Shown here: piece by piece, positions 381 to 62,114 of the stretch | Layout of the letters: each line of letters begins with the position of its first letter | Numbering within the stretch: the first letter of the stretch is position 1 | Assembly (NCBI GenBank): GCA_041649475.1 | Contig: JBAZNA010000001.1 | Coordinates: 124,267-188,266 of the forward strand | DNA length: 64,000 bases | Source: Patescibacteria group bacterium | GTDB lineage: Bacteria > Patescibacteriota > Patescibacteriia > Magasanikbacterales > GWA2-37-8 | Direction: 5' to 3' | Program-made: the position numbers and the translations under genes | Notes under the pieces: generated by a model | Told to the model about the DNA's origin: nothing | The model's input: only the letters and a program-made list of their open reading frames with translations | Databases searched by the model: none

Positions 381-460
381 TCTGGCGGAAGCGCCGGCTT
401 GAACTTAAGGGGGAATAGTGTTAGTGTGTAAATATCGGGTTTATTCTTAATCTTGTCTAT

Positions 461-1219: not shown

Positions 1220-1237
1220 AAATTTGTATTTTAAATT

Positions 1238-2431: not shown

Positions 2432-2612
2432 GGAAAAGGTGGAAAAAATTGATGATACGCATTTTGTTGTCCATGTAAAAGAACCGCCACAGAATGGTTT
2501 GGCCAACAAAGGCATTGCCAAAGTGTTGGCAGAGTATTTTCAGGTGGCGCAAAGCCGGGTAAGGGTAGTAAAAGGATATACATCAAAACAAAAAATAATT
2601 GAAATAATTTAA
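2394..2612 (+). CDS. DUF167/YggU-family small protein
   Basis: 72 aa, VKAKP...NGLANKG...LAEYF pattern resembles UPF0235/YggU. Confidence 0.5.
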   Translation: MRVYVKAKPMAYEEKVEKIDDTHFVVHVKEPPQNGLANKGIAKVLAEYFQVAQSRVRVVKGYTSKQKIIEII

Positions 2613-2617
2613 ATTGT

Positions 2618-3769: not shown

Positions 3770-3771
3770 AT

Positions 3772-4209: not shown

Positions 4210-4284
4210 ATTTTTATTTTTACTGGAGCGAAAATTTAGTTTAAATTTACCTTTTATTCATTATACCACTTGTTGACTTTTATG

Positions 4285-6006: not shown

Positions 6007-6025
6007 ATGATTGTGATTAGTTGTC

Positions 6026-6277
6026 TTACGTAATACCATCGCCACAGTCGGCTGGGGGAACAAGCTGCCCATCGCGCATCACGAATCCTCGCGCGAGCAG
6101 CTCGTAGAGGATTGTACGAATCGCAGTGAGAAAACCGAGTAGCTGGTTCGCGGCCTCGTTTGATATGCCGCCAAGGGCTTCCGCAGATTGAGATGGTCGT
6201 GGTGAGCGTGTGTCATGAATCATAGACTCATCACGATACGCCATGTTCCTGGTCGGCGTAAGTAGTGAAATCGGCAA
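6026..6277 (-). CDS. Hypothetical small protein upstream of integrase (possible Xis/RDF-like; speculative)
   Basis: 83-aa ORF co-oriented with and immediately upstream of int; no recognisable motif. Confidence 0.25.
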   Translation of the reverse strand: MPISLLTPTRNMAYRDESMIHDTRSPRPSQSAEALGGISNEAANQLLGFLTAIRTILYELLARGFVMRDGQLVPPADCGDGIT

Positions 6278-31294: not shown

Positions 31295-31677
31295 TGTTGA
31301 AGACCGTCCTCGTCATGCCGCTCAAGCTGCTCTGGTGGACCATCAGGATCACCGCCCGGCTCGCACTCCTTCTGCTCGAGTCCGCCTTCTGGTTGTTCCA
31401 TGCGGTGCGGTGGCTCGTCACCATCGCCGACGACTTCTTCAAGGCGAAGCGCTTGATGCCTGCCGGGGAACTGCACTGTCCGCGCGGTCATCTGGTCCTG
31501 CCGGCTCGCGAGAAACAGGTGGCCAAGTGCGAGGCCTGCGGCTGGACGTTTGAGGCGTCTGGGTTCGACATCCTCGTGTGCAAGAACCCCGAGTGCGTCA
31601 GCCCTCAGACTTCGTACATCAACTGCCCCACCTGTGGTCTAAGCGTCCGCAATCCTTATAGGCTTGGTCGCCCATGA
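31285..31677 (+). CDS. Membrane-anchored zinc-ribbon protein, hypothetical
   Basis: N-terminal TM helices; CPRGH...CEACG...CKNPEC...CPTCG cysteine pairs. Confidence 0.4.
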   Translation: MGLMLKTVLVMPLKLLWWTIRITARLALLLLESAFWLFHAVRWLVTIADDFFKAKRLMPAGELHCPRGHLVLPAREKQVAKCEACGWTFEASGFDILVCKNPECVSPQTSYINCPTCGLSVRNPYRLGRP

Positions 31678-32546
31678 GCGTGCGTGCGGCCAAGCGGTCG
31701 AGGACGGTCCGGTGCAAGGGTAAGCACGGCCTCGAGATCACCGAGCGCGACACCGCTATTCTCATCCTCCTCGGCAACGTCCGGTTCGCCACTCCGAACC
31801 AGATCAGTCGCGAGCTGTTCTCGAGCCTCGACCGCTGTCGCCGACGCCTTCGACAACTCTTCGACGCCGGCTACATCGTCATCACGATCTCCTCCTCGCG
31901 CCACCCGAACCTCGTCTCGCTCACGAAGGCCGGGCTTGACGTCGCCAGCCAGGCTGCGCCTCACGTCGCAGACCGGCTCAGACTGGCTGGTGCCATTAGG
32001 CTCGCCGGCATCGAGCACCACTTGCTGTGCACCGACATTCGGCTCTTTGCGGTCGCTCTCGGCGAGCTTCGGCATGCGCCCCTGGCTCGCTGGGCCAACG
32101 CAGGCGGCGACCTCGTCCGCGAGCTCGATCTTGCTCGCTTCCACATCCAGCCCGACGCTGTCGCCCAGTACACCATCAATCCCTCCGGAGACGCGATCCA
32201 CATCGCCATCGAAGCGGACTGCGCCACGCAGTCGGTCTCCTCGGTCCTCGTCGGCAAGCTTCGGCGCTACGCTCAGGCTGCCGCGCAGACGAGTCTCGAC
32301 GCTCTGTGGTTGGTGACCTCCGGCGGGGAGCAGCGGCGGGCGAACATCGACGCATTGTTGAACCAACAGGGACTCGAGCAGTTCGTGCGGGTGCTGTCGC
32401 GCGCGCACGTCATCGCCCGACCGGTTCGGGAGCTGCCGGCGCGCGGGGGGAGTAGGGCCGTTCAAGGCCCTATTACGACCTCCTTCCTCGACTCTGATTC
32501 TAGTTGCACCTCGCGGTGTTCAAACACCGAGGGTCGCAGTCGGTAG
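31674..32546 (+). CDS. Replication-relaxation family protein (copy 2)
   Basis: ITERDTAILILLGNVRFATPNQISREL signature. Confidence 0.7.
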   Translation: MSVRAAKRSRTVRCKGKHGLEITERDTAILILLGNVRFATPNQISRELFSSLDRCRRRLRQLFDAGYIVITISSSRHPNLVSLTKAGLDVASQAAPHVADRLRLAGAIRLAGIEHHLLCTDIRLFAVALGELRHAPLARWANAGGDLVRELDLARFHIQPDAVAQYTINPSGDAIHIAIEADCATQSVSSVLVGKLRRYAQAAAQTSLDALWLVTSGGEQRRANIDALLNQQGLEQFVRVLSRAHVIARPVRELPARGGSRAVQGPITTSFLDSDSSCTSRCSNTEGRSR

Positions 32547-32751
32547 GCGGGCCGATGGGCGGGTTCGATAGGACGGGCGGACACGAACACCGACGGTCGG
32601 CCTACTCGCCGCGCGCCCGGGAACCCCAGCTCGTCGATCTTCCGCTCATCATCGACATCATCCGTGAGGTTCTGCGTGAGGAGCTCAGCGCGTGTGCTAT
32701 GCTCGCAGCGACTGAACTCCCGTCGCGCCGAAGAGAGGAGGGTGAACAATC

Positions 32752-33963
32752 ATGGCGCGACCCAAGGAAGGACCACGCGTCCGAGGTCCGTACCGCTACG
32801 ACGGAGGACGACGATGGCGAGTCGACGTTTTCAAGGGCAGAGGCGAGGAGGATCCTGAGCTCCACTACTACGAGACGGAAAAGGAAGCTCGGCAGGTAGT
32901 CCAGTCGCTGAGAAGAGCGATGGGTCAGCAGCAGGACCGCACCATCGACGACGCCTTGAAGGAGTACGAGCGGCACATGCGGGAGAAGGGGAACAAGCCG
33001 AAGTCGATCACGGAGACGACCCGCAGACTCCGACTCTTCTTCCCGGACCTCGAGATGCCGCTCGCCGCGTTCAACTCCAGCCGCGCTCAGACGTACTACG
33101 ACGAGCTCTGCCAGCGACCAACGATGCAGCCGAAGCGGCAACAGGTCGACGGAGACGAGGTGGCGTCGCTGCGTGAACAGAAGCTCTCGTGGCGCGACAT
33201 CTGTGCCAAGCTCAAGTGCGGTCGGTCGGCTGCGATGCGCGCGCTAGAGCAGCGAGGCCAGCCCGAGCCCGAGTCCCGCAAGCTGTCAGTCGACAGCCAT
33301 CGCAACATGCTCGCCGAGGCCAAGTCGTTCACCCGCTGGTGCACGGAGGACAAGCGCTGGCTCAAGGCGAACCCCCTCGAGGCCGTCAAGGGCAAGGGCA
33401 AGCGCAAGCACGGCAAGCTGCAGCTGCGCATCGACGAGACGCGCAAGTGGGTCGCCAAGGCGCTCGAGTTGGCGGGGCAGGGCGAGGAGGGCGCGATCGC
33501 GGCCCTGCTCACGCTGTACCTCAACCTGCGCTGCAGCGAAGTGGTGACCCGAGTCGCGCGCGATGTCGACGACAACGGCCGGGTGCTCTGGGTGCCGGAC
33601 AGCAAGACCGAGAAGGGCAAGCGTACGCAGGAAGTCCCGCCGGAGTTGCGGCCGTTCCTCTTGCAGCTCACGTCGGGCAAGACCGCCGATGCCAAGCTGT
33701 TCGGCTGTGCCTCGCGCGACTGGCCGCGTCATTGGGTGCAGCGGATCTGCGCCTTGGCGGGAGTGCCCGTCGTCTGCGCTCACGGCATGCGCGGCACTCA
33801 CTCGAGCATCGCGCACGCCTTCGGCTTCACGAGCCGCGCCGTCGCCGACGCGATGGGGCATGAGTCCGAGAAGACCACGATCGAGAGCTACACGGACCCG
33901 TCGGTCGTGGCGAACGCGCAGCAGAAGCGCATGCTGCAGGTCCTGAATGGGGGCCGAGCTTGA
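32752..33963 (+). CDS. Tyrosine integrase (phage-integrase family)
   Basis: C-terminal catalytic block: RCSEV (R), HGMRGTHSS (H-x-x-R), GHESEKTTIESYT (Y). Confidence 0.8.
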   Translation: MARPKEGPRVRGPYRYDGGRRWRVDVFKGRGEEDPELHYYETEKEARQVVQSLRRAMGQQQDRTIDDALKEYERHMREKGNKPKSITETTRRLRLFFPDLEMPLAAFNSSRAQTYYDELCQRPTMQPKRQQVDGDEVASLREQKLSWRDICAKLKCGRSAAMRALEQRGQPEPESRKLSVDSHRNMLAEAKSFTRWCTEDKRWLKANPLEAVKGKGKRKHGKLQLRIDETRKWVAKALELAGQGEEGAIAALLTLYLNLRCSEVVTRVARDVDDNGRVLWVPDSKTEKGKRTQEVPPELRPFLLQLTSGKTADAKLFGCASRDWPRHWVQRICALAGVPVVCAHGMRGTHSSIAHAFGFTSRAVADAMGHESEKTTIESYTDPSVVANAQQKRMLQVLNGGRA

Positions 33964-34080: not shown

Positions 34081-34352
34081 AATGCCATTCGTCGGGAAAG
34101 CAGGGGGCTACGAGTAGTTGTCAGGTGGTTTCGTTGTCAGCCGCGACGGGAGTTCAGTCATTCTCGTGGCTTATAGCTGACAAGGATTCGTTCGGTGACC
34201 AATCCTAGCATGGGGTTCAGCAGTTGTGGTGATCGGGTTGTCGTCGTGCAACACCGCGGACTGTCACGCGGAGACGCGATCTCCGTCGGGAGCATGGTCT
34301 TCACCTGCGGTGGGACTTGAAACCTGAACGGATGATCTGTAGCTTGGCCGGC

Positions 34353-34916
34353 ATGTGGTACTTGAACCTGAGCGGCTTGAACATGAAGCTCGGCCCCTTC
34401 ACGACCGAGGGCCTCCGCGATGCGCTGAGCAAGGGCGTGCTGCGCGCGGATACGGTGGTCGAGGACACCGGGGGCCGCCGGTCTTCGGTCGGTGACATCG
34501 TGGGCGCACCCGGGACGTCGACCCTGGAGAACGTCATCCTTGGGGCACTCGCCGTGGGAGGGGCCGCCGCCATCCTCCACAGCATCTTCGGCAAGAAGTC
34601 GCGCGTTGGAATCTCGAAGGAGGAGCGGAACAGCATCCTTCGGTCGGGGCGCGTACACGAACGGCAGGGCGCCTTGCTCGTCTGCATGGACCATGTGCCG
34701 GCTGCCTGCCCGCCCCCGAAAGTTGGTAGACGGCGGCCCGATCTGGTCGCCTACTACGACGACAAGATTGTCGCGGAGGAGCACGAGACCATCGCGACCG
34801 TCTTCAAGAAGCACTCGGTTGAACAGAACCGGGATCTGCGCAGAGAAACGAAGCGCTGCGGCTGGGAGTACCGGCAGGTCATCGCCGAGCTCCCAGACTT
34901 GGACCTCAACGACTGA
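34353..34916 (+). CDS. DUF4339 (GYF-like) domain protein
   Basis: MWYLNLSG...GPFTTEGLRDALSKGVL matches the DUF4339 W-Y...GP...L...G pattern. Confidence 0.4.
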   Translation: MWYLNLSGLNMKLGPFTTEGLRDALSKGVLRADTVVEDTGGRRSSVGDIVGAPGTSTLENVILGALAVGGAAAILHSIFGKKSRVGISKEERNSILRSGRVHERQGALLVCMDHVPAACPPPKVGRRRPDLVAYYDDKIVAEEHETIATVFKKHSVEQNRDLRRETKRCGWEYRQVIAELPDLDLND

Positions 34917-34928
34917 CTGGTCGGTTCC

Positions 34929-35195
34929 TCACACACCCGCAGTCTGAATCACGTAAAAGCCCTGGGGGTGGACGTATTCCCGCTCGAGGCCATGGGCGAT
35001 GGCCGAAGCCATCGCCTGGGTGCGGTGCTGGCTCATGATGTCCCATCGCATGCGGTCGTTCGCGCAGTCCCAGTGCCGGACCGCCTTGGTGATGCCCACG
35101 CAATGGGCGCCGTCGCGCCGCGCGACAGGGTCCTTGGATACGCCGAAGCAAACCTCGCCCTGATCGTAGTTGATAGCGCGATAGACGAGGAACAT
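34929..35195 (-). CDS. Small GIY-YIG-like nuclease domain protein
   Basis: MFLVYRAINYDQGEVCFGVSKDPVARRDGAH fits the GIY...YIG...R...H pattern. Confidence 0.4.
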   Translation of the reverse strand: MFLVYRAINYDQGEVCFGVSKDPVARRDGAHCVGITKAVRHWDCANDRMRWDIMSQHRTQAMASAIAHGLEREYVHPQGFYVIQTAGV

Positions 35196-35359
35196 CTCGG
35201 ACCTCTCTCTTCGAACCCGACTCCCAGCTGCGGCGATGAACGCGTACAGGAGCAACTACTACTAGCGCAGACACGAAAACAGGCCCGAGGGGTATCACCC
35301 CGGGGCCCGTTCATTGGCTTTTCACATCAGGTTGCCTGAAGCAAAACAGAAGGCCTCTC

Positions 35360-37648
35360 CTACCCGAGCTGCCCGTAGATCAAGGTCCGCTTGACGAAGG
35401 TTTCGAGCTCAATCGGGTTCACCACCGGCGGCGCTCCTGGCCCGTTGTGGTGGAACTGCTTCGAGTAGTCGTTGATGTCCGTGAGCTCCTGCACACGCGG
35501 TTGCAGACCCACGAGGAGAGTGCCGGCGCCCGCGTTGCGGATTCTGCCGATGAAGTCGCCCAGGTAGTCCGTCGCCGGAAACGCGTCCGGGAACCGGCCC
35601 CGCAGCTGGCCCTCCAGGTACGGCCGGATCGCCCGGGCAATGGTCAGAAGGTCCCCACCAGTAGAGAGTCCCTCGTCCAGGTAGCGGCGCAGGAGGAAGA
35701 AGTCGCGGTAGGCCGCCTCCAGGCACGCCTTGAGGATGTCCCACTCCTTGATGGCGTAGGTCGCGCCGTCGCGTGTGACCTGCAGGGACTTGATCGTGGC
35801 CTTGTCGATGTTGGTGTCGTAGATGTGCTTCAGGAAGTCCGCGTCATGCGACAGGACCACCACCTGCTTGGCCTGACTGCCCAGGCGGCAAATCTCCTGC
35901 TGGGTGCAGGCTGTACGGAACACGTCGAGGCTCGAGAGCGGGTCATCGAGGACGATGACCTTCTGCGCCAGCAACGGGTCCTGCTCGAGCCGCGCCAAAA
36001 AGAATGCCAGCGCCAGGGTGCTCTTGTCGCCAGAGCTTAGGGCCGTCCGGAAGCACGGCGTGCCGCGGGGTGTCTTCTCGTCCCCTAGGTTGACGGGGGT
36101 GTTGTTGATGGAAATTTGGTAGGTGGAGCTGGCCCGGCCGCCCTGGAAGCTCGGCTTGGTACCGGTGAGGGTAAAGTTGGCGCCGAACTTCTGCAGCAGG
36201 CGGTTGATCGCCTGCTCGTACTTCTGGAGGATCGAGCCGGCGATGGTCTCCAGCTGGCTACGCGTCTTCTTCTTCTCGTCCTCGTAGTTCTTCTTCTGCT
36301 GGCGCCCGGCGGTCAGCTTGGCGCACAGGTCAGTGGCCTCGGGCTGCTGCCGGATCTGCATGTTGCGGAACCGGCGCAGCTCCCGCTCCAGCACGTCCTC
36401 GCCGGTGGCCGCGGCCTGCTTCTTGATGTCGGCGATCTGCTCGTTCGCGCGCGCGATCTGCTCGTTGACCTTGCGCACGGCGGCCGCCGCCTCCTCGAAG
36501 TCGTGGAGGGCGGCCTCCAGGTGCTCATCCTTGGACGGGGGCTCCGACGGATTGGCCAGCCGGCGCTTGAGGGCGTCGCGCAGGACCTCGCGGACGTGCC
36601 GCCAGGCATGCTCAAGCGCGTCAGTGGAACAGGTGGCGTAGCTCAGGTCGGCCAAATCTGCCCAGCCGCGGATCAGGCCGTCGTTGGCCAGCACTCGCTT
36701 CTGGACGCCGTGGAGCGCGTCGTCGCCGAGCGTCTGGTCCAGGGCGTTGATGGCTCGCTCGATGAGGACGACGTGGTCGCGGTACTTGGTCGAGAAGTAG
36801 TCGCGCAGGAGGGCGACCAGCTCGACCTTCTCGGTGGACTGGGTGCAGAACGGACAGGCGTGGTCCTCCTTCAAGTACTCGAGGCCTTGCCGCAACCACT
36901 GCTCGCCGCGACCGTCGAGGTCGTCCTGGATGTGCTGACGGACCAGCTTGTCGCCGCCCTCCGTCTTGCGCTCGACCGCGACCTGGAGGATGTCGATGGA
37001 CTTGGCCGGAACCTCAGGCACCGTGAGCGGGTCCAGCTCGCGCCGAGCGACGATCTCCCTCGACTTGCGGACTGCGCTCAGGCGAGTGGTCCGCTCGCTG
37101 ATCTTCTCCTCGAGCCCGTTCTCGGGGACGAGCGTGAGGAACTCGTCGACGCTGAACGGCGCCTGGATGATTCCCCGCAGCTTCGTCTCCAGCTCGGTTA
37201 TGTCGTGCGCCGCGGTCCGGCTCTTGGTGTCGATCTCGTCCACCTGGTGCGCGAGCGCGACCGCAGCCGCGCCCACCACGACCTCGTAGAGGTGCTTGCG
37301 GTGCTCGGACTCGACGCGGTCGCCGGTGTAGACGTTCTCGTTGATGAAGGTCGAGTCGAATATCTCCAGGTCGGGCATGGTCTGCGACCACTGGCCGCCC
37401 TGGAAGCTGGCGTTGCCCGCCGCCAGCCGGATCTCGACCGCCGGCGAGCCGTTCACGCCGAGCGTAGCGCGCTCCTGGACGTAGGCCGGGTCCCCGGTCT
37501 GCAGGGAGCGCAGGATGCCGGCGAGAGTGGTCTTCCCGTGCCCGTTGTCGCCGTAGATGAGGGTCAGCCGCTTGAACTGAACGTCTGCCTTGGCTGCCAG
37601 TTTGACGAACCGACCGACGTTCTCCACCTTGATGATTTTCTCTATCAT
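35360..37648 (-). CDS. AAA_13-family ATPase with long coiled-coil, RloC/PrrC-like (putative anticodon-nuclease or abortive-infection protein), divergent from hsdM
   Basis: N-terminal KIIKVENVGRFVK...LIYGDNGHGKTTL (AAA_13), extensive coiled-coil, conserved C-terminal domain; genomic linkage to the type I R-M. Confidence 0.6.
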   Translation of the reverse strand: MIEKIIKVENVGRFVKLAAKADVQFKRLTLIYGDNGHGKTTLAGILRSLQTGDPAYVQERATLGVNGSPAVEIRLAAGNASFQGGQWSQTMPDLEIFDSTFINENVYTGDRVESEHRKHLYEVVVGAAAVALAHQVDEIDTKSRTAAHDITELETKLRGIIQAPFSVDEFLTLVPENGLEEKISERTTRLSAVRKSREIVARRELDPLTVPEVPAKSIDILQVAVERKTEGGDKLVRQHIQDDLDGRGEQWLRQGLEYLKEDHACPFCTQSTEKVELVALLRDYFSTKYRDHVVLIERAINALDQTLGDDALHGVQKRVLANDGLIRGWADLADLSYATCSTDALEHAWRHVREVLRDALKRRLANPSEPPSKDEHLEAALHDFEEAAAAVRKVNEQIARANEQIADIKKQAAATGEDVLERELRRFRNMQIRQQPEATDLCAKLTAGRQQKKNYEDEKKKTRSQLETIAGSILQKYEQAINRLLQKFGANFTLTGTKPSFQGGRASSTYQISINNTPVNLGDEKTPRGTPCFRTALSSGDKSTLALAFFLARLEQDPLLAQKVIVLDDPLSSLDVFRTACTQQEICRLGSQAKQVVVLSHDADFLKHIYDTNIDKATIKSLQVTRDGATYAIKEWDILKACLEAAYRDFFLLRRYLDEGLSTGGDLLTIARAIRPYLEGQLRGRFPDAFPATDYLGDFIGRIRNAGAGTLLVGLQPRVQELTDINDYSKQFHHNGPGAPPVVNPIELETFVKRTLIYGQLG

Positions 37649-37756
37649 ATTAGTATTCTCAATATGTTAGCCTGCGGGCCTGGGTTCTTTGCTTAGCTCT
37701 GGGATTTCTTGCCAGGCCCTTGACGTTATCTTTGCTATAACATAAACTACAATCAT

Positions 37757-39568
37757 ATGTCAACCACAACCTCATCATTCGGCGATCGCGTCCAGCTCCT
37801 GCGCAAGCGCCTGAACCTCAGCCAGGAGCAGCTCGGGACGCGGCTGGACGTCTCCTTCGCAACCATCAGCCGCTGGGAGTCGGGCAAGTCGCAACCGCAG
37901 AAAGCCCAGCTCGCGACCTTCGACCGTCTCTGGGAGGAGACCGGCCTAGACCACGACGAAGCCGCTACGACCGCGACAACAGGCCAGCGTCGCCGTCGCG
38001 GCGTTCATCGCAGCTCCGTGCTCAGCAACAAAAGCATGGAGCAGATGCTGTGGGACGCCGCCTGCTCGATCCGAGGCGAGAAAGACGCCCCCAAGTTCAA
38101 GGATTACCTTCTGCCGCTTCTTTTCATCAAGCGGCTATCCGATGTCTTCGACGACGAGGTCGAGCGCCTGACACAGACCTACGGCGACCGCGACACGGCC
38201 CTCACCGTGCTGGAAGCCGATCACGAGCTCGTCCGCTTCTACCTCCCGCCCGAGGCGCGCTGGGCCGTCGTCAGCGGACGCGAGCCCTTCGACTGGCCTG
38301 CCACCCTCCGGCCGAAATCACTCGGCGAGCAACTCACCACCACCATCCGCGCCGTCGTGAAGCACAACCCCGAACTCGCCGGCGTCATCGACATCGTCGA
38401 CTACAACGAGACGCGCAACGGAGAGCGCGAGATCAGCGACGCCGCTCTTAAGGGCGTCGTTGAGACGTTCTCCGATCCCCGCTACCGCCTCGGCCTCCAC
38501 AACGTCGAGCCCGACTTCCTCGGCCGCTGCTACGAGTACCTCCTCCGGAAGTTCGCCGAGGGCCAAGGCCAGAGCGCGGGCGAATTCTTCACGCCGCGTG
38601 AGGTTGGTTTTCTCATGGCGGAGATCATGCGGCCCCGCCCGGGCGAGGAGTGCTACGACTATGCCTGCGGCTCATTCGGCTTGCTCATTAAGCTCCAGCT
38701 CGTTTGCCGTCGTCTGAACCCCCTCAGCAAGGTGCCACTACAGCTCTACGGCCAGGAGCTCACCGGCTCCAGCTTCGCCATCGCCTGCATGAACCGCATC
38801 ATCCACGACATGGAGGGCCAGGTCCTCCGTGGCGACTCGATGCGCAACCCGAAGTTCAGGGATGCTGACGGTCACCTCAAGAAGTTCGACGTCGTGGTCT
38901 CAAATCCAATGTGGAACCAGCCGTTCGACCCCGAGGTGTACGAGAACGATCAGTTTGGCCGCTTCGTTGAGCACGGAGGCATCACCACCAGCAAGGCCGA
39001 CTGGGCCTGGCTCCAGCACACGGTTACGTCATTGAAGGACAACGGACGCGCCGCTGTGGTCCTCGATACCGGCGCAGTCACACGCGGCAGCGGCAGCAAG
39101 AACGAGGACAAGGAACGCAACATCCGCAAGTGGTTCGTCGAGCACGACCTGATTGACGGTGTGATCCTCCTCCCTGACAACCTCTTCTACAACACCATGG
39201 CCGCCGGGGTGATCCTTATCCTTTCCAAACGGAAGCCCAAAGAGCGACGTGGAAAGATCGTCCTTGTCAACGCTAGCAACGAGTTCACCAAGGGCACACC
39301 GAAGAACTACCTCACCGACGAGGCCGTTCAGAAGATCGGGGCTGCGTTCGTGGCAGGGAAGCCCGTTGAGGGCTTCGTGGCAGTCATTACCAACGAGGAA
39401 GCGCTGGCAGACGACTACAACCTATCGCCGTCGCGTTTTGTGCAATTCAACGGCACACGTGGCACAAATCGACCCTTGCCAGAGATTGTGGCCGACCTAG
39501 ACGCCATCGATGCCGAGCGAACGCGAATCGACAAGGAACTGCGGCGGGTTCTGGAGCAGCTACTATGA
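37757..39568 (+). CDS. hsdM: Type I restriction-modification N6-adenine DNA methyltransferase HsdM, with an N-terminal XRE-type HTH extension
   Basis: First about 65 aa, [31 protein letters not shown] (HTH); then the HsdM N-domain ([11 protein letters not shown]...[15 protein letters not shown]), SAM motifs, NPMWNQPF catalytic motif. Confidence 0.9.
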
Positions 39569-40857
39569 CCAACGCTGCTCCCAAGGGATGGACAGAAGTA
39601 CCACTCGGAGAGATCGCCACCTGCCAGGGTGGATCAGCATTCTCTCCCGCGTTGCAGGGGCGCACTGCCGGTGACATTCCCTTCTTCAAAGTGTCCGACA
39701 TGAACCTGCCAGGAAACGGTTGGTTCATGCGTCGGGCAAACAACTACGTAAGCCTCTCCGACACGTCCCGTATCCTCGGGGCAGAGAAGCCATCTGGCTC
39801 TGTCATATTTCCCAAAGTAGGCGCTGCCGTGCATACGAATAAGAAGCGCCAGCTCACACAGGATTCCTTCGTAGACAACAACGTCATGGCCGTATGGTCA
39901 AAGGACCCCGAGCGCTGTCGTCCAGGATTCCTTTACTTGTATTTTCTAACGGTTGATCTCTCGACGATGTCCAACCCCGGACCCCTGCCGTCAATAAACA
40001 ACAGCAAGGTCTATGAGCAGACTATCCGTCTCCCTACGTCACTTGAGCAGGACCGCATCTGCGCCACGATGCTCACCATTAGACGCGCGATCGAGGCCGA
40101 GGAGAAGGCGATCACACTTATCCGCGAAGTGAAACAGGCCGCGCTGCTGCGCCTCTTCAGTCAGGGACTGCGCGGTGAGTCACTGCGTGACACCGAGATC
40201 GGTCTTGTGCCAGCCAGCTGGGATATTCAGCCCTTCGCCGAGCTTCGCGAGTTCTTGCAGTACGGGACCTCCGTGAAGTGCGACTATGCGCTAGAAGGGA
40301 ATCCTGTCCTGCGCATCCCGAACGTGGTTGACGGTCGAGTTGATTACCGTGACCTGAAGAGATGTCGCCTCGACAGCGATACGGTCGCCTCTCTGTTGCT
40401 CGAACCAGGCGACATTCTGTTCATTCGGACGAACGGAGTGCGCGAACGGGTGGGCACCTGCGCAGTCTACGACGGCGTTCCGGAACAGGCGCTATTCGCC
40501 TCCTACCTCATTCGGGCCCGACCTAAGCGCGGTGTTCTCAACCCCCAATACCTCCAGTACTTCACGGCAACACGCACAGGCGCATCCCAGCTCGCCGGAC
40601 GATCCTCACCGGCTGCAGACGGCAAGTTCAATATCAACACGAAGTCCATCGATGCCGTGCTAGTCCCGATCCCGTCGGAGGCCGAGCAGAACGACATCGT
40701 CGGCGTGCTCGAGACGATCGATGCTGCCGCAACCTCCTATGAACGCCGGCGAGCGACCCTCTCGGAGCTATTTGCCACGCTTCTCGAGAAGCTCATGACC
40801 GCCGACCTTCGCGTGGACCACCTCAACATCGACACTTCGCTAATGACGGCAGCCTAA
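39565..40857 (+). CDS. hsdS: Type I R-M specificity subunit HsdS (two target-recognition domains)
   Basis: ATGA overlap with hsdM; duplicated TRD architecture with conserved central and C-terminal helices. Confidence 0.85.
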
Positions 40858-40859
40858 CT

Positions 40860-43772
<2,913 letters not shown>

Positions 43773-43777
43773 CACGT

Positions 43778-44116
43778 ATGCGCACTCCCGTGACAACCGA
43801 AGTGAAGATTGAGTTCAAGGCCAGGGTTCGTGCCTGGGCCGTTCGCATTCGAGTTGAGCCAAAGCAGGTCCGTGTCCAGGCCATGAGGCGCAAGTGGGCA
43901 TCATGCTCGAAGCGCGGATGGTGTACGTTCGCGCACGACCTGCTCCACGAGTCACGTCCCTTCCAGGACCACGTTATCGTCCACGAACTACTCCATCTGC
44001 GATACCGCAATCACGGGAAGCTCTACCGGGCCGCCCTTCGTTCTTATCTCTCGCCGGCCAAAGCAATGCACCTCGACGTTGTCGGGGACCGCTGCCTTGT
44101 CCGCCGGGAGTCGTGA
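43778..44116 (+). CDS. DUF45/YgjP-family metal-dependent hydrolase (short form)
   Basis: WASCSKRG...VIVHELLHLRYRNHGKLYRAAL (HExxH); typical position downstream of hsdR. Confidence 0.6.
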   Translation: MRTPVTTEVKIEFKARVRAWAVRIRVEPKQVRVQAMRRKWASCSKRGWCTFAHDLLHESRPFQDHVIVHELLHLRYRNHGKLYRAALRSYLSPAKAMHLDVVGDRCLVRRES

Positions 44117-44125
44117 GGCCTTCCT

Positions 44126-45346
44126 ATGAAAGAGTACCTCTTCTGTTCCCGAAACCTGTCCGACGTGATGGAGGACAGGCTCCAGAAGATGAAGCGCGAA
44201 CTGGAAGACTACGCGCCTGATCGGCTCCTCAACACCTCGACTGAGGATCTCGTGGAGTACTGTGGTAATGAGTACGGGATGGAGCCCGTGGTTTTGCACG
44301 AGGAACAAACCGAATGCGATCAGCATGAGCATCAATTGGACGTGAGCCAAGACCCTAACAGGTTCATTTTCGATTCGAGCCGTCCCTTCTATGTGCCGTC
44401 CTACCTTTTCGAATTCTTCGTGCCGTTCAGCGGTGATCCCGAGGTCCTCGAATCGCGGACGATGAGCTACGATATGAACCCGCCACGCGCCGAGATTCGT
44501 GAAGGCCAGCTGAGGTTCGCGGCTATCCTCGAGAAGCCAGACGGCGAGGCTGCCCGTGAGCAGTTCCACAATGAACTAAAGAAAGTGCGAACCTACCTGT
44601 CGCGTGGTGAGGCGACCATCAGCGATTACAACAAGCGGGTGAGGACGACATCTCAGGCGCAGATTGAGGCACGCAAGCAGCGGCTGCTGGCGGGAAGAAA
44701 CGTAGCCGCGTCCCTCGGATACCCCATGCGGGTCCGAGCCGATGCTCCCCTCACGTACGCTGCCCCTGCCATTAGAAGGAAGATGGTTGCTCCACCGCGG
44801 GCTAGTTCGGGAGCGTTCTCTCCTGAACCCGTGATGCTAATTGAAGACTACGAGCATATCCTGGGCATCATCGAGACTATGGTGCTTATGTTCGAGCGCA
44901 GTCCGGCGACCTTCAAGAACATGAAGGAGGAGGATCTGCGAAATCACATCCTGGTGCAGCTCAACGGCCACTATGAGGGCGCGGCGACTGGTGAGACGTT
45001 TAATGGTGGCGGGAAGACGGACATCCTCGTCCGAGTCGATAACAGGAATGTCTTCATCGGCGAGTGTAAGTTCTGGGCGGGACCGGTCACGCTCGCTGAG
45101 ACTATTGACCAGGTTTTCGGGTATGCGTCCTGGAGAGACACCAAGATCGCGATCATCTTGTTCAACCGCAACAAGGACACGTCGGCAGTGCTGGCGAAGA
45201 TCCCCGACGCACTCAGAAGCCACGCGAATTTCAAACGGCTCGAGAAGAGCGCCGCAGAGACGCGCTTCCGAGCGGTCTTGCATCAGCCGGGAGACGTAAA
45301 TCGCGAGGTAAGCTTGACCGTGCTGGTGTTCGATGTGCCTGCTTGA
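44126..45346 (+). CDS. Hypothetical protein with C-terminal PD-(D/E)xK nuclease-like motif
   Basis: GGGKTDILVRVDNRNVFIGECKFW (D...ECK); N-terminal region unrecognised. Confidence 0.5.
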   Translation: MKEYLFCSRNLSDVMEDRLQKMKRELEDYAPDRLLNTSTEDLVEYCGNEYGMEPVVLHEEQTECDQHEHQLDVSQDPNRFIFDSSRPFYVPSYLFEFFVPFSGDPEVLESRTMSYDMNPPRAEIREGQLRFAAILEKPDGEAAREQFHNELKKVRTYLSRGEATISDYNKRVRTTSQAQIEARKQRLLAGRNVAASLGYPMRVRADAPLTYAAPAIRRKMVAPPRASSGAFSPEPVMLIEDYEHILGIIETMVLMFERSPATFKNMKEEDLRNHILVQLNGHYEGAATGETFNGGGKTDILVRVDNRNVFIGECKFWAGPVTLAETIDQVFGYASWRDTKIAIILFNRNKDTSAVLAKIPDALRSHANFKRLEKSAAETRFRAVLHQPGDVNREVSLTVLVFDVPA

Positions 45347-45380
45347 GGCTGAGCGATTGCGATGGGCAACGAGAGTAGCA

Positions 45381-45488
45381 GGGTTCTAAGGCAGTCCCGA
45401 CATGCCCGCATCGTGAGACACGCACAACACAAGCACTCGTCGGAGCGCAACACCAAGATCACCCCGGCACAGGGTGATCTTTCGTTTG
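45381..45488 (+). ncRNA. Candidate structured RNA / attenuator element, copy A (conserved boxes plus covarying hairpin plus U-tract)
   Basis: GGGTTCTAA...GCCCGCATCGTGAGACA...GATCACCC-N7-GGGTGATC-TTTCGTTTG; paralogous to 55024..55134 with compensatory stem changes. Confidence 0.4.
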
Positions 45489-45941
45489 CTCGAGCGCGAT
45501 GTTCCGAGGATACCGGCGAGCGCCACCGCAAAGTGTCGCCCTCCGGGCCCCCAGGGTGGACGGGACTCGAACCTGCCGACCAATCGACAAAAACACGTGT
45601 AGTGGCCGCGCCTTAGCTCCAAATTCGAGTCTCGCGCCCCTGTCTTTCCTGTCCAGCAGTTACACGCAGTTGCGACCAAGTGCGGCGGAGCTTGGGCAGC
45701 AGTTGGGCAGTGCTCTTTCCGCTGGGCGGCAGGTTGTTACGTCAGCCTGCGCCTTTCCCAATGGGGACTTGCGTCGGGAGCCGCCGTTCCCCGATAGCGC
45801 CCAGCCTTCATCCTGGCGGCCCAGGGATTCGCACACTCCCCTTGCAGTGGCGCCGCGAGATGCGTATCTTGGTGGAGTCAGGATTGGAGTCAGGATCCCG
45901 TTCCGCTACCGGCTGGCGCTCTGCGCCCAACGGAGGTCCTG

Positions 45942-46814
45942 ATGGCCAGCACACGTATAGTACTGTTCGATCAGATCACGCTCGACTTCGCAGTGGCACG
46001 TGATGGCGACGGCGGGTACGCAGTCCGTCGACTTCTCGCCCTCTTTCCCGATCGACGCTGCCATCCGCATCTCAGCCTGTTCGCGGCCCCTCGTTTCGAT
46101 CTGCACTTCACAGCCGCTGGTGGGGGGCGCGCGTTTCGACGTCGGTTGTTGGACTTGCCACTCCAGAACGTGGCCGAAGGCGCAGGTCGTCTCGCGGCTG
46201 AGACCGGCCGCAGGTTCGTGACCGCACTTGAGCCGGTCGACCTCGATGAGATTGAAGCGTGCGGCTGGATGGCGCACGCCGCTGATTCCCGCGTCCTACT
46301 GCGCTGGGCGCGGCGCGCCGCCCGGAGTCAGGAGGTCCACGTCAACATCGAGAGCGTCGTGGCTCTGACATCTCATGTTCTCGAAAATGCCGCTCGTCCC
46401 AGTGCGCTCAAATCACTCGCCGATGGCAATGGGCGTCGGTTCCTTGCGGCGCGCCATAGGTCCGACGCTGACCGGGACCTTCGACAGCTCCTGTGGTACC
46501 CGGATGGCTACTGGACGCAGAGCGAGCCGGATGGAAAGGCCCACATGTCGCGTCCGCCTGGATGGTACTGGTACAATTTCGGCTCGACTGACCAAGCCGG
46601 ACTGCAAGATCTACTGCCTGTAGAACTGCTCAAGCGCAAAGCTGCTGAGATTGGGAAGTACCTGCGACGCTTTCCCCGAAGGGGGACTAGCATCCCATCG
46701 GTTCCCCTGGACCAGATTCCACGCTTCGTCTCAACGATTGCCGGGTTCTATGCCGGCGACCTTCTCACTGCGCTACTGATCGCTCGCGAGGAGAACTCCT
46801 ACCCAACCCAATGA
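45942..46814 (+). CDS. Hypothetical protein
   Basis: 290-aa ORF, RBS GGAGG. Confidence 0.4.
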   Translation: MASTRIVLFDQITLDFAVARDGDGGYAVRRLLALFPDRRCHPHLSLFAAPRFDLHFTAAGGGRAFRRRLLDLPLQNVAEGAGRLAAETGRRFVTALEPVDLDEIEACGWMAHAADSRVLLRWARRAARSQEVHVNIESVVALTSHVLENAARPSALKSLADGNGRRFLAARHRSDADRDLRQLLWYPDGYWTQSEPDGKAHMSRPPGWYWYNFGSTDQAGLQDLLPVELLKRKAAEIGKYLRRFPRRGTSIPSVPLDQIPRFVSTIAGFYAGDLLTALLIAREENSYPTQ

Positions 46815-46862
46815 TCCGGCGAACTGGCGATTCCATCCCCACAGCGGCCTCGGAGGATCTGG

Positions 46863-47786
46863 ATGAGCACGACCAGCAAGCAACGGCGAGATCAGAAAAA
46901 GAAACGAGCCGCAAAGCGAAGCAATCGGCGTCGAGCCGAGGCGAGCGCCGCCCGGTCAGCGCGTCACACTACTGCGACCCTGTTCTCCGAACGGAAGAGA
47001 TACGTGGACCGATGGCGAGCCACCTCCGACCATCTGTTGGCCGGAGGCCATTATGCATGGATGGCGAGCTTCGTGCGGGGTTTCCCGCGCGTCCTGGAGA
47101 TCGGTACGGGTGTTGGCAATGGGACGATTGTGCTGCTTCGAGACGGCCATGCCGTCGTCTCGATTGATGAGAATCCGGATTGTCTCGCTGCCGCTATGGG
47201 GCGTATCCAACACGCAGGGTTCCCATGTGTTTGTTTGACCCGAGGAACGGTGCACCAGGAGATCCACGGGCATCGGATTGAATATGATGAAGTCGATACC
47301 GCGCCGGCCTCCGAGGGCGCGACCCTGATCGAAGCTGATCTCGTGAACGATCCACGCTGGGTATCGTGGGTCAAGGCACTACTCCCCTTTGACGCTGTCG
47401 TCTGTTGGCTGGCCGGGAGCCACAGAGCACGACCGCTCAACGTCGCCTTGACAGGGATCGGGAGTCCGCAGGAATTGCGTCTGTCCGTACAGAACCGCGC
47501 GTACACACTAGCAGACGAAGTTCTGCGCCCAGGTGGAGTGCTCCATGTGGTTGATCGCCGTGAGCCAATGGCAAACCATGAGCTTCTTCGATCGGACGCG
47601 CTTCGAGCTCATCGAGAGCAGGCTTCACCGACGAATCTTGTGATTGCGGATGATGCTATCGAGGAAAGACTGTATGAGGAACCGCGCGACGGCGGCGTGG
47701 AGATGATCGTATCTGCAGGCATATCAGGTCGCATGCCAGACATGACCCAGCTAGCGTTGACCTCGATAATCAGCAGAAGGATGTAG
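46863..47786 (+). CDS. Class I SAM-dependent methyltransferase with basic N-terminal tail
   Basis: VLEIGTGVGNGTIVL (motif I), acidic residue after beta2 (VVSIDENPD). Confidence 0.55.
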   Translation: MSTTSKQRRDQKKKRAAKRSNRRRAEASAARSARHTTATLFSERKRYVDRWRATSDHLLAGGHYAWMASFVRGFPRVLEIGTGVGNGTIVLLRDGHAVVSIDENPDCLAAAMGRIQHAGFPCVCLTRGTVHQEIHGHRIEYDEVDTAPASEGATLIEADLVNDPRWVSWVKALLPFDAVVCWLAGSHRARPLNVALTGIGSPQELRLSVQNRAYTLADEVLRPGGVLHVVDRREPMANHELLRSDALRAHREQASPTNLVIADDAIEERLYEEPRDGGVEMIVSAGISGRMPDMTQLALTSIISRRM

Positions 47787-59031: not shown

Positions 59032-60357
59032 TTACTGACTTTCCTCGTCCGCTGCCGACACCGGGGGTAGCTGCAGCGGGGGTGGGTTGATCCAGACGGC
59101 CGTGGGCGGCTGTGCTGGCACGGGCGGGCGACGTACGAAGCGCTCCGGGTGCTCTTGCCAGGCCGCCGAGAGTACCAGCTGCCGTTGCGCGAGCACGTGC
59201 GGCCCGCGGCCGTAGTGCACCATCTCGGGCGTCAGCAGGCCGAGGCCCGTGTGGTGGTGTTCGGTGTTGTACCAGGCGAAGAAGGGGCCGCAGAAGGCGC
59301 GTGCGTCCTCGACGCAGCCGAAGCGGTCGGGAAACTCCGGCCGGTACTTGAGCGTCTTGAATTGGCTCTCGGAGAAGGGGTTGTCGTTGGAGACGTGCGG
59401 GCGGCTGTGCGTCTTGGTGACGCCGAGGTCCGCCAGCAGCAAGGCGACTGGTCGGCTCGTCATCGACGTGCCGCGGTCGGCGTGCACCGTCACCATCCCT
59501 GGCCTAATCGCCTGCTTCTCGCAGGTCTCGTAGATGAGCTGCTGTGCGAGCTGCGCGGTCTCACGCTGGGCCACCATCCACCCGACGACGTAGCGGCTGA
59601 AGATGTCGAGGATCACGTACAGGTGGAAGTAGGTCCACTTCACCGGCCCGAGTAGTCGGCTGATGTCCCACGACCACACCTGGTTGGGCCGGGTCGCGAG
59701 GAGCTCGGGCTTGGCGTAGGTCGGATGGCGGAGCTGGTCGCGGCGCTCGCGCAGCTCATTGTGTGCGCGGAGCAGGCGGTACATGGTCCGCACTGAGCAC
59801 AGGTACCGTCCCTCGTCGAGGAGCGTGGCGTAGATTTCGCGCGGCGCCTGGTCGACGAAGCGCGGGCTGTGCAGCTCGGCGAGCACCGCCTCCCGCTCCG
59901 CGGGCTGCAGCGCCCGCGCCGGCGTAGCGCGCGGCGCGGTGCGCGTGGGCGGGGGCGCGGCGGCGGTCCGCCGGCGCCGGTACAGGGTCGCGCGCGGGAT
60001 CCCCAGCGCCGCACAGGCGGGCGCTGACCCGATCTCGCGCGCCAGCGCGAAAGCGGTCGGCATCAGTCGTTCTCGTCGTCGCTGGGGCGGGTCAGCGGGA
60101 TCCCCAGCAACTCCGAGGCTTTTTTTTGGACCGCGATGACGATCTTCGCCCGGGTCAGCTGCTTCTGCAGCCGTGCCTTCTCGCGCTCCAGCTGCGCCAC
60201 TCGTCGCGCCAGCGGATTGCGCGTCGGTTTGGGACCGCGGCGCGGCCCCAGCCCGCCCAGCACGCCCAGGCGGTTCTGCATCCGCCAATCCGCCAGGTGC
60301 GAGGAGTACAAGCCGTGGCGCCGCAACAGCGCCCCCACCTCGCCGGGCGTGGTGCAC
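59032..60357 (-). CDS. IS3-family transposase OrfB (DDE integrase core); expressed as OrfAB by -1 frameshift
   Basis: DDE core (WSWDISRL...TVHADRGTSMTS...NDNPFSESQF); -1 frame relative to orfA at the A AAA AAA G heptamer (plus-strand T-run 60120-60127). Confidence 0.75.
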   Translation of the reverse strand: MHHARRGGGAVAAPRLVLLAPGGLADAEPPGRAGRAGAAPRSQTDAQSAGATSGAAGAREGTAAEAADPGEDRHRGPKKSLGVAGDPADPPQRRRERLMPTAFALAREIGSAPACAALGIPRATLYRRRRTAAAPPPTRTAPRATPARALQPAEREAVLAELHSPRFVDQAPREIYATLLDEGRYLCSVRTMYRLLRAHNELRERRDQLRHPTYAKPELLATRPNQVWSWDISRLLGPVKWTYFHLYVILDIFSRYVVGWMVAQRETAQLAQQLIYETCEKQAIRPGMVTVHADRGTSMTSRPVALLLADLGVTKTHSRPHVSNDNPFSESQFKTLKYRPEFPDRFGCVEDARAFCGPFFAWYNTEHHHTGLGLLTPEMVHYGRGPHVLAQRQLVLSAAWQEHPERFVRRPPVPAQPPTAVWINPPPLQLPPVSAADEESQ

Positions 60358-61956: not shown

Positions 61957-62028
61957 GCCCCCGTCGTTCAATGGATAGGACACTAGCCTGCGAAGCTGGA
62001 AATCTAGGTTCGACTCCTAGCGGGAGCA
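61957..62028 (+). tRNA. tRNA-Arg-like (anticodon GCG), with a C3-A70 acceptor mismatch and a 4-nt variable loop
   Basis: D-arm GTTC/AATGGATA/GGAC, anticodon loop CTGCGAA, T-arm CTAGG-TTCGACT-CCTAG, acceptor GCCCCCG/CGGGAGC; unusual anticodon and mismatch reduce confidence. Confidence 0.5.
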
Positions 62029-62114
62029 CAAGTAAAAATTGATTTTTAAAAGCCGAGGTGATAAAATTGCTTCGGCTTTTTGATAACACAAACAAACGCA
62101 CGAGGAGGCGAACA

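Follow-up and report, generated by a model that had tools for sequence, protein, structure and literature searches.

The protein described here is closest to RloC, studied in Geobacillus kaustophilus and Acinetobacter baylyi (Davidov & Kaufmann 2008; Klaiman et al. 2012, 2014), and can also be compared with the anticodon nuclease PrrC. For few defence proteins has a connection been proposed between Rad50-like DNA-end sensing and translation shut-down; RloC is one of them, and only two orthologues have been studied. The published work shows self-regulation. A CX2C motif (C291) regulates the nuclease of the G. kaustophilus protein (PMC2610378, PMC3458546), and neither silencing nor activation of RloC is altered when hsdR or hsdM is mutated in A. 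baylyi (PMC3874168). Mobile elements often carry the rloC gene with no silencer beside it. PrrC (EcoPrrC, linked to the EcoprrI type Ic restriction-modification system) has about 340-416 aa and no coiled-coil or zinc-hook insert; its gene is always linked to restriction-modification (R-M) genes and lies between hsdS and hsdR. Mutation of the R-x3-E...H pattern abolishes activity in PrrC and in RloC. The R-x3-E part corresponds to R320/E324 in PrrC and R692/E696 in RloC (PMC2610378), and PrrC residues H295, R349, and N352 are further nuclease-domain residues common to both (PMC3025547).

The window (the whole stretch of 64,000 nucleotides that was analysed) carries on its minus strand a gene whose product is a further member of the already known RloC family. 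Most likely it encodes a "suicide" enzyme in which a Rad50-like ATPase is combined with a probable tRNA-cutting domain. About 65 full-length homologues and at least 403 genomic relatives show that the ORF is a real gene and rule out a chance ORF. Its components are listed below; the conservation counts refer to 136 relatives from many phyla with 25-100% identity.

35360..37648, minus strand: RloC-family gene, 762 aa (ORF and translation), with a Rad50-like ABC ATPase, a zinc-hook insert and a putative C-terminal anticodon-nuclease domain
37526..37552, minus strand: Walker A / P-loop GDNGHGKTT (G33-T41), within LIYGDNGHGKTTL (residues 30-42); N35, G38 and K39 invariant in 136/136 relatives
36188..37309, minus strand: helical (coiled-coil-like) insert splitting the ATPase head, residues ~114-487 in the AlphaFold model
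36845..36856, minus strand: CPFC (C265-C268), putative zinc hook; C265, P266 and C268 invariant in 136/136
35843..36043, minus strand: ATPase C-lobe with signature LSSGDKS (S538/G540/D541), Walker B VIVLDD (D568-D569), D-loop SSLD and switch His H601
35363..35815, minus strand: C-terminal domain, residues 612-762, putative nuclease; a beta-hairpin followed by a five-helix bundle, model pLDDT 90.9
35600..35626, minus strand: R675-x3-E679-x3-R683, putative catalytic Arg and Glu on one helix; R675 in 135/136, E679 in 136/136, R683 in 118/136 plus 10 with K
35447..35473, minus strand: N726-x-Y728-x4-H733-H734, putative catalytic His at a helix end; H734 in 136/136, H733 in 123, N726 in 124, Y728 in 120
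35284..35304, minus strand: terminator-like hairpin, 56 nt past the stop codon; a consensus match, with 2 found against 1.7 expected by chance

The initial annotation described a 762-aa protein with an AAA_13 N-terminus, a long coiled coil, and a conserved C-terminal domain, and all three parts of this description held. AAA_13 (PF13166) was found by Pfam search with E=3.1e-46 and 158.9 bits, the cut-off being 36. The AlphaFold model (pLDDT 87.7) matches SMC, Rad50, and LmuB heads with coiled coils (E=3e-10 to 1e-6), and long helices (114-160 and 375-487) border the helical insert of ~370 residues. A separate domain, predicted with confidence, is made up of the C-terminal 150 residues and is kept in 838 cluster representatives (50% identity, many phyla). 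In the ATPase, S538/G540/D541, D568-D569, S573/D575, and H601 are invariant in 136/136 relatives. The full-length protein matched only ABC ATPase cores, or chance sequences, among PDB entries. Homologues bear the automatic JGI COG label "wobble nucleotide-excising tRNase" (COG4694). The best PADLOC match is the PDC-S06 model PDLC04895 (1.6e-70; residues 1-687 against profile positions 1-709 of 784). PDC-S06 is a bioinformatic "guilt by embedding" candidate without published phenotype or mechanism, so the match gives a label and adds no function; PADLOC carries the whole 838-cluster clade only under this candidate name.

The protein had also been called RloC/PrrC-like, and here only the first half of the name stood. 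Like RloC, it has the ABC ATPase motifs, a head split by a helical insert with CX2C (zinc binding is predicted here), and a C-terminal Arg-x3-Glu...His. Its 762 aa, and the 750-790 aa of its relatives, lie within the size definition of RloC, 658-897 aa (PMC2610378). Compared by published residue positions only, K39/C265/D568/R675/E679/H734 are placed much as K44/C291/D572/R692/E696/H737 of the G. kaustophilus protein (PMC2610378, PMC3458546). With PrrC the protein shares an ABC ATPase with a DD Walker B (D215-D216 in PrrC, PMC3025547) and the R-x3-E...H triad, and the two C-lobes could be aligned (hhalign E=9.5e-5). However, PrrC identity was rejected. The PADLOC PrrC model recognises authentic PrrC at 4.9e-144 over 5-395, whereas here it gives 6.9e-6 and covers only residues 534-628, the ATPase core. 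The protein is larger than PrrC and has a ~370-aa insert, and the gene lies upstream of hsdM in divergent orientation rather than between hsdS and hsdR.

The C-terminal domain always lies at the end of ~760-aa proteins and was never found apart from the ATPase among the 838 cluster representatives. Short PrrC-like proteins with this domain were considered as well; the PrrC-sized candidates proved to be N-terminally truncated fragments without Walker A. The Arg/Glu/His triad, which the initial annotation had proposed to look for, is present. R675, E679, and H734 are the sole near-invariant polar residues of the domain in the 136 relatives, while the remainder of it drifts, and R675-x3-E679 resembles the published R-x3-E. 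Other features depart from RloC. E679 and H734 stand 54 residues apart, which exceeds the published range of 36-52 by 2, and the residue ahead of H734 is His733 where RloC often has Ser (PMC2610378). The R-x2-N-x3-H motif of PrrC and RloC (R349 and N352 equivalents) is absent: in the 136 relatives no conserved Arg was found 4-7 residues before H734, and N726, conserved in 124/136, lies at -8 and not at the -4 expected for an N352 equivalent. No invariant upstream His was found that could correspond to PrrC H295 (position 647 is His in 47/136 only).

Searches with the domain gave little. Alone, it had zero matches in Pfam and PADLOC at E<=10, and 25 diverse members searched singly against Pfam had scattered chance matches only. 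The best-scoring PF13166 stretch ends at profile position 580 of 713, and the domain has no match to the C-terminal part of Pfam AAA_13. Its profile gave chance matches only against PDB sequences. Nothing significant was found among PDB folds, where the best compact matches by TM-score (0.40-0.50) were HEPN toxins; the HEPN motif Rx4-6H (PMC3710099) is absent from the domain in the 136 relatives (K/R occurs at -4 in 93/136). Comparison by hhalign with the PrrC nuclease domain gave a probability of 0.5% and no alignment. The full-length comparison, with authentic PrrC sequences drawn from metagenomes with the published peptide KYGDSNKSFSY, covered the ATPase motifs only, and its low-confidence extension failed to place R675/E679 on R320/E324. 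Because the domain has neither significant similarity to PrrC, Pfam, or PDB entries nor Rx4-6H, its nuclease activity is one that we infer by analogy with the known enzymes. Less probably, the domain may represent a distinct nuclease variant (no Rx4-6H; R-x3-E-x3-R and HH), whose substrate may be other than the tRNA-Glu/Gln of known RloCs.

By our preferred explanation, which we give a probability of about 0.6, the gene encodes a single-gene abortive-infection-type defence protein of the RloC family (COG4694, AAA_13, PDC-S06), self-latent and tRNA-cutting, which forms a modular two-layer cassette together with the R-M system. On the model of RloC from A. baylyi and G. kaustophilus, the protein would keep itself latent through its zinc hook and ATPase. 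Binding of DNA ends (of phage DNA, or of breaks arising from infection or restriction) and ATP hydrolysis would then switch on the C-terminal domain, which would cut tRNA anticodon loops, and translation would stop in the infected cell.

It is also necessary to consider that the protein may be a sensor and motor only, with a non-catalytic C-terminal domain of regulatory or binding function, and may act on DNA or recruit an unlinked effector. Such proteins are Lamassu LmuB, Septu PtuA, and PARIS AriA, Rad50/SMC-like ABC ATPase sensors to which the present protein is similar in head structure and by partial HMM matches. Here, the head resembles the Lamassu LmuB structures, the weaker PADLOC matches (LmuB and mad3) are partial, and the C-terminal domain has no detectable homology to any nuclease. 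However, the effectors of LmuB, PtuA, and AriA are encoded separately, while in our case the presumed effector domain is fused and no conserved partner gene accompanies it in 80 loci. The only invariant polar residues of the domain make up the R-x3-E...H pattern, which is essential in PrrC and RloC, and its constant union with the ATPase also speaks against a role of this kind, which we consider rather unlikely.

The genomic surroundings of the relatives bear on how the preferred defence protein might work. The gene is patchily distributed across unrelated phyla and lies in defence islands or mobile elements with BREX, DUF1156/DUF499, Eco57I-type enzymes, integrases, and resolvases, again like RloC, which travels as mobile-element or defence-island cargo. 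Across the 80 loci no neighbour or partner gene is conserved, including any of Mre11/SbcD type, and neither is synteny. This pattern fits a protein acting autonomously, as a single gene without a conserved neighbour. The closest relative (P0002) has an integrase and a Replic_Relax gene alongside, not detectably homologous to the backbone genes of the window. The following features surround the gene in the window.

31674-32546, plus strand: Replic_Relax gene, a mobile-element marker by the locus
32752-33963, plus strand: tyrosine recombinase, a mobile-element marker by the locus
37649..37756, no strand: AT-rich divergent intergenic region with one promoter-like site each way (minus strand 37662..37635, plus strand 37720..37748; 2 found against 0.3 expected)
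37720..37748, plus strand: hsdM promoter TTGACG-17 nt-TAAACT with the spacer element GTTAT-N7-ATAAC (37726-37742)
37757..39568, plus strand: hsdM with an N-terminal XRE-type HTH (aa 8-58); N6_Mtase 7.4e-79, HsdM_N 7.9e-22, HTH_3 8.7e-10
39565..40857, plus strand: hsdS specificity subunit; Methylase_S 6.6e-16 in two stretches, PADLOC Specificity_I 8.4e-68
40860..43772, plus strand: hsdR restriction/translocase subunit; TIGR00348 2.9e-126, above cut-off; HSDR_N, SWI2_SNF2, T1R_D3-like
43778..44116, plus strand: YgjP-like (M48-type) metallopeptidase fragment at the cassette end; PF01863 7.8e-21

Two small ORFs between the RloC-family gene and the integrase (34158-34814 and 34906-35298) match nothing in Pfam and lack counterparts in relatives.

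As the initial annotation stated, the RloC-family gene is divergent from the hsdM of a type I R-M operon. The distance to the hsdM-hsdS-hsdR-YgjP operon is 108 bp, and the R-M system is complete, all three hsd genes exceeding Pfam and NCBIfam thresholds; the YgjP-like gene after hsdR is kept in all related cassettes. In the small sample of 13 cassettes on the R-M side, seven carry a suicide-type module at this divergent site, with 41-108 bp between it and hsdM. The module is an RloC-like gene in three of them, from two subclades ~33% identical, and CBASS in four (L137/138, L152, L153-156, and L142). In L139 and L140 the RloC-like gene belongs to the other subclade (32-35% identical) and is divergent from a 77%-identical HTH-hsdM; subclade B matches the same PDC-S06 sub-model. 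One slot can hold either an RloC-like gene (3/13) or CBASS (4/13), and the most fitting reading of the proximity to hsdMSR is a modular defence cassette with two layers and an interchangeable slot, in preference to a silencing complex of the PrrC type. The idea of a second-line suicide module paired with R-M finds some support in the genome organisation. In more general terms, a very common HTH-hsdM type I cassette appears to carry interchangeable abortive-infection modules (two RloC-like subclades and several CBASS types) at a conserved promoter and putative operator.

It could be argued that the two systems are chance neighbours, unrelated cargo of a defence island, linked neither in function nor in regulation. 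The surroundings of the relatives are highly variable, and the hsdMSR-YgjP block alone is shared between loci, the window having no element backbone in common with L081 or L139. But chance hardly accounts for the exact divergent position of the suicide-type module in 7/13 cassettes, nor for the fact that sequence conservation of the cassette ends exactly at the -35 element of the hsdM promoter. We find this explanation just as doubtful as that of a sensor and motor.

The initial annotation proposed that the protein is held in check by the type I R-M, that is, as a latent PrrC-style holoenzyme: bound and silenced by the adjoining R-M complex, it would be freed, and would cleave tRNA, once R-M is disabled by a phage anti-restriction protein. 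The genetic association with type I R-M and the concept of second-line defence are indeed common to PrrC and the present locus. The gene adjoins a complete hsdMSR across a common 108-bp control region, and L139 and L140 again have a gene of the RloC-like family beside this cassette. The name RloC originally denoted restriction-linked ORFs, and the authors of the RloC studies leave cooperation with R-M possible. Nevertheless, within 10 kb of the gene, type I hsdM is present in just 7 of the 80 relatives and not in any of the six closest, an occasional linkage close to the published 8/72 for RloC, and R-M is also absent near subclade-B relatives elsewhere. The limited reach of the PrrC model into the ATPase core and the A. 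baylyi hsdR/hsdM mutants (PMC3874168) count against it too. Moreover, the two subclades beside near-identical R-M cassettes share only ~33% identity, and the same place can be filled by CBASS; both points argue against a co-evolved protein-protein interface with R-M. We find no support for silencing by R-M and regard it as quite unlikely.

A housekeeping SMC/Rad50-like chromosome or repair ATPase, named by the initial annotation as the contrary outcome, is very improbable in spite of the fold match to SMC and Rad50 heads, since the gene is patchily distributed, lies in variable defence and mobile contexts and has no conserved synteny, no Mre11/SbcD-type partner is conserved, SMC and Rad50 have no such C-terminal domain, and the scores with the NCBIfam models for SMC and RecF fall well short of the cut-offs.

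Returning to the two-layer cassette, we can ask how its halves might be connected. The hsdM promoter and the GTTAT-N7-ATAAC element are near-invariant in five cassettes, whatever lies upstream, and the element possibly serves the HsdM HTH domain as operator. A further, speculative and unlikely step is that the HsdM-fused HTH binds this element and that the same operator also controls the divergent suicide module (RloC-like or CBASS), so that second-line expression would be set by how abundant the methylase subunit is or by its occupancy. One operator would govern both directions because the intergenic region is as short as 41-108 bp. If true, this would be a transcriptional counterpart of the protein-level coupling of PrrC, and a plug-in slot for varied abortive-infection modules. 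With one divergent slot abutting a conserved promoter and putative operator, the coupling of first- and second-line defence is directly testable with reporter fusions.

Two short intergenic palindromes (I1 and I2) near the RloC-like start are not conserved in L139 or L140. At the other end of the gene, the terminator-like hairpin weakly suggests a monocistronic unit. The locus offers a clean, intact, apparently monocistronic example with the putative active site mapped precisely to R675, E679, R683, N726, H733, and H734.

The cassette can also be compared with the RptR-hsdMS-DarTG-hsdR-M48 island of EPEC (PMC12255303), in which a type I R-M system likewise ends in an M48/YgjP-type peptidase, contains a suicide module and has an HTH repressor, bound in EPEC at the hsdM-side promoter. 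The EPEC repressor is a small protein of its own, and DarTG lies between hsdS and hsdR; in the window HsdM itself carries the HTH, as a fusion, and the second module lies upstream in divergent orientation. This HsdM domain set, HTH included, is common to more than 120 clusters with 71-79% identity.

The initial annotation described a 762-aa ORF with an AAA_13 N-terminus, divergent from hsdM, and every feature it described is present in the window. Only 108 bp separate this ORF from a complete, oppositely oriented type I restriction-modification (R-M) operon:

31674-33963, Replic_Relax gene and tyrosine recombinase, on the far side of the RloC-like gene from the hsd operon
35360-37648, minus strand, RloC-like ORF of 762 codons (Pfam AAA_13, E=3.1e-46)
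37757-39568, plus strand, hsdM of the complete type I R-M operon
39565-40857, plus strand, hsdS of the same operon
40860-43772, plus strand, hsdR of the same operon
43778-44116, plus strand, YgjP/M48-like peptidase fragment directly after hsdR

The AAA_13 match clears its cut-off of 36 with 158.9 bits, and the P-loop GDNGHGKTT lies at the N-terminus (residues 33-41). The exact protein and its HsdM neighbour are both already on public record, from a MAG; the former has about 65 full-length homologues, and at least 403 relatives occur in species-representative genomes. The best PADLOC model, PDLC04895 of the candidate system PDC-S06, matches over the full length (1.6e-70); this family has no published test, and the large clade to which the window gene belongs figures in current defence databases only as a candidate. 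Several homologues carry the automatic JGI name "wobble nucleotide-excising tRNase", which is the COG4694/RloC label.

Conservation was evaluated in an alignment of 136 relatives from many phyla (25-100% identity), drawn from the homologues and 73 genomic loci. The ATPase is intact, with invariant N35/G38/K39, S538/G540/D541, D568-D569-P570, S573/D575 and H601, and C265-P266-x-C268 in the mid-protein helical insert is invariant as well. In the last 150 residues the sole invariant or near-invariant positions are R675 (135/136), E679 and H734 (136/136 each), which form an active-site-like R-x3-E...H in a separate C-terminal domain; R683, P687, L696, G697, N726, Y728, H733 and E747 are strongly, not absolutely, conserved. 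In the full-length AlphaFold model (63-sequence alignment, pLDDT 87.7), a helical insert at approximately 114-487 interrupts the ABC head. Residues 612-762 modelled alone (pLDDT 90.9) give a beta-hairpin followed by five helices, where R675/E679/R683 share helix 667-685 and H733-H734 end helix 711-732. Exhaustive phmmer with this domain retrieved 838 cluster representatives (351 at E<=1e-10), and in essentially all of them it sits at the extreme C-terminus of proteins of about 750-790 aa. The PrrC-sized proteins with such a domain proved to be N-terminally truncated fragments starting within the insert.

As defined in PMC2610378, an RloC carries the motifs of an ABC ATPase, measures 658-897 aa, has a CX2C zinc hook within a coiled-coil insert and shows Arg-X3-Glu-X36-52-His towards its C-terminus, the His often preceded by Ser. 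The key residues of G. kaustophilus RloC, K44, C291, D572, R692, E696 and H737 (PMC2610378, PMC3458546), have counterparts here in K39, C265, D568, R675, E679 and H734, and thus both architecture and triad match RloC closely. The C-terminal domain nevertheless deviates from the canonical motif set: Glu and His are 54 residues apart rather than 36-52, and the residue in front of the conserved His is His instead of Ser. PrrC H295, R349 and N352, the additional residues common to PrrC and RloC (PMC3025547), have no clear counterparts in the 136-relative alignment. Since no conserved Arg occurs 4-7 residues before H734 in the same alignment, the HEPN Rx4-6H motif is absent too.

For comparison with PrrC, 35 complete PrrCs were recovered from metagenomes by scanning with a back-translation of the EcoPrrC peptide KYGDSNKSFSY known from the literature. 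One of 396 aa has R320, N321, E324, R349, N352 and H356 exactly as published. The PADLOC PrrC model matched authentic PrrC, our control, over its whole length (4.9e-144) but the window protein in the ATPase core only (6.9e-6). In full-length hhalign the two proteins align at Walker A (3.8e-5) and from signature to switch (9.5e-5), with a weak collinear extension; comparison of the C-terminal domains gave a probability of 0.5%. These results rule out PrrC identity. The "RloC/PrrC-like" of the initial annotation is supported in its first half, by architecture, triad, PDC-S06 and the COG4694 label, and fails in its second. The peptide itself, the "lysine anticodon recognising peptide" of EcoPrrC, is exact in 48 metagenomic loci whose PrrCs otherwise share only 59-80% identity with the 396-aa reference, which points to strong constraint on the peptide.

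Taken together, we give a probability of about 0.6 that the window gene is an RloC-family, anticodon-cleaving enzyme, kept latent by zinc hook and ATPase and activated by DNA ends. By analogy with characterised RloCs, its own zinc hook and ATPase would maintain latency, DNA ends with ATP hydrolysis would activate it, and the C-terminal domain would then cleave anticodon loops, arresting translation in the infected cell. That this domain is non-catalytic is unlikely in our view. What ties it to the RloC/PrrC nuclease is the invariant triad together with the architecture, evidence of the sort from which, with "manual adjustment", the RloC-PrrC link was originally drawn (PMC2610378).

Is the pairing with R-M meaningful? 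Judged from the RloC side, it is not. That rloC genes can be linked to type I R-M was already recognised when they were named. The published frequency is 8/72 (PMC2610378), and similarly tblastn for HsdM in flanks of up to 10 kb around 80 genomic loci of relatives found an HsdM-like gene in seven, divergent and adjacent in only two. The genes that recur in these flanks encode other DNA-modification or restriction functions or recombinases: N6_N4/DUF1156 methylases (17 loci), Eco57I-type enzymes (8 and 5), SNF2 helicases and resolvases. The six closest relatives examined (49-58% identity) have no type I R-M beside them:

P0002, within an integrase/Replic_Relax element, beside a DEAD/ResIII helicase
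P0009, immediately 3' of a BREX operon
P0011, 3' of a DUF1156-DUF499 system
P0040, adjoining an Eco57I-type methylase
P0042 and P0014, no recognisable neighbours

The gene has a defence and mobile-element context. Pure coincidence of its neighbourhood with R-M is as improbable as a non-catalytic domain. Not supported, and a shade more doubtful, is the proposal of the initial annotation that a type I R-M complex masks the nuclease in the manner of PrrC. The divergent arrangement recalls it, but type I R-M is absent by the six closest relatives examined, and in A. baylyi hsdR and hsdM mutants leave RloC silencing and activation both unchanged (PMC3874168). RloC has an internal switch, the zinc hook with a DNA-dependent ATPase, and moves as mobile-element cargo without a silencer (PMC3458546). 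A housekeeping SMC-like ATPase, the alternative named at the outset, is hardly credible, since no neighbour family is conserved across the 80 loci; in its favour, Foldseek (E=3e-10 to 1e-6) matches the model to heads, with their coiled coils, of SMC and Rad50 as well as of JetC and Lamassu LmuB.

Of more interest is the R-M side, compared by sequence in 13 distinct HTH-hsdM-hsdS-hsdR-YgjP cassettes (the window, six metagenomic or genomic contexts and six viral contigs). The window HsdM has an N-terminal XRE-type HTH domain (aa 1-58; 37757-37930), and its family is very common and conserved (>120 clusters, 71-79% identity, identical domain set). The divergent slot upstream of hsdM, 41-108 bp away and abutting a conserved promoter and putative operator, holds an RloC-like gene in three cassettes (window, L139, L140), an identically placed CBASS operon in four (L137/138, L152, L153-156, L142), and a GmrSD enzyme, recombinases or unknown genes in six. 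The CBASS operons (L137 1778-6939; L152 204-4910; L153 2077-4959; L142 2498-5106) differ in type (Cap2/JAB; SAVED+SMODS+ThiF+JAB; CD-NTase+patatin) and lie 41-90 bp upstream of hsdM.

The L139 and L140 RloC-like proteins align with the window's over the full length (E~1e-130), keep the triad and fall in the same PADLOC sub-model. Their subclade is only 32-35% identical to the window protein (74% between the two), while the adjoining HsdM and HsdR show 70-82% identity. Relatives of this subclade at other loci have no R-M nearby, and the window and related loci have no backbone genes in common. This pattern agrees with suicide-type modules having been inserted or exchanged repeatedly in a single slot by the cassette, and disagrees with joint inheritance of a co-evolved pair. 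In L139 a second ABC ATPase gene (2792-4555, minus strand; 587 aa, AAA_15/AAA_21) lies 3' of the RloC-like gene on the same strand, with an integrase next in line; this ATPase gene could be a defence gene in its own right or encode a partner.

Upstream of hsdM we found TTGACG, 17 nt and TAnnnT, with a conserved element in the spacer. The window promoter (37720-37748, TTGACGTTATCTTTGCTATAACATAAACT) includes GTTAT-N7-ATAAC between -35 and -10. Across five cassettes this region hardly varies, regardless of upstream content, and it is recognisable in three more; conservation ends at the -35 element. Such a spacer suggests a binding site, and the HsdM HTH domain plausibly binds GTTAT-N7-ATAAC as a putative auto-operator. 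The intergenic region is so short that the divergent promoter must overlap the conserved region; the RloC-like gene has its own promoter-like sites and terminator-like hairpin, as weak evidence. A documented precedent, in which an HTH protein governs type I R-M along with a suicide module, is the EPEC RptR-hsdMS-DarTG-hsdR-M48 island (PMC12255303); regulation of the RloC-like gene by the fused HTH is speculation.

Between this gene and the integrase, minus-strand ORFs of 218 aa (34158-34814) and 130 aa (34906-35298) match nothing in Pfam or in the related loci and, in such GC-rich DNA, are possibly spurious; the terminator-like hairpin (35284-35304) overlaps the start of the latter. The region 3' of the YgjP-like gene (44126-47786) holds same-strand ORFs of 406, 147 and 290 aa without Pfam match and one of 307 aa, with sub-threshold methyltransferase matches only; these may be further island cargo. 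ARAGORN predicted tRNA-Ala(TGC) at 4336-4409, tRNA-Trp(CCA) at 60212-60294 and tRNA-Arg(GCG) at 61957-62029, none of which adjoins the integrase (32752-33963). Since the first falls within a long ORF called on the minus strand (4285-6072), either this tRNA or that ORF is probably a false call. GC is 44% in positions 1-4000 and 56-67% in the remainder, and this sharp boundary near 4 kb suggests foreign DNA or another island. With approximately 62% GC and nearest relatives in Sandaracinaceae, Anaeromyxobacter and Planctomycetota, the label "Patescibacteria group bacterium" of the source MAG looks doubtful.
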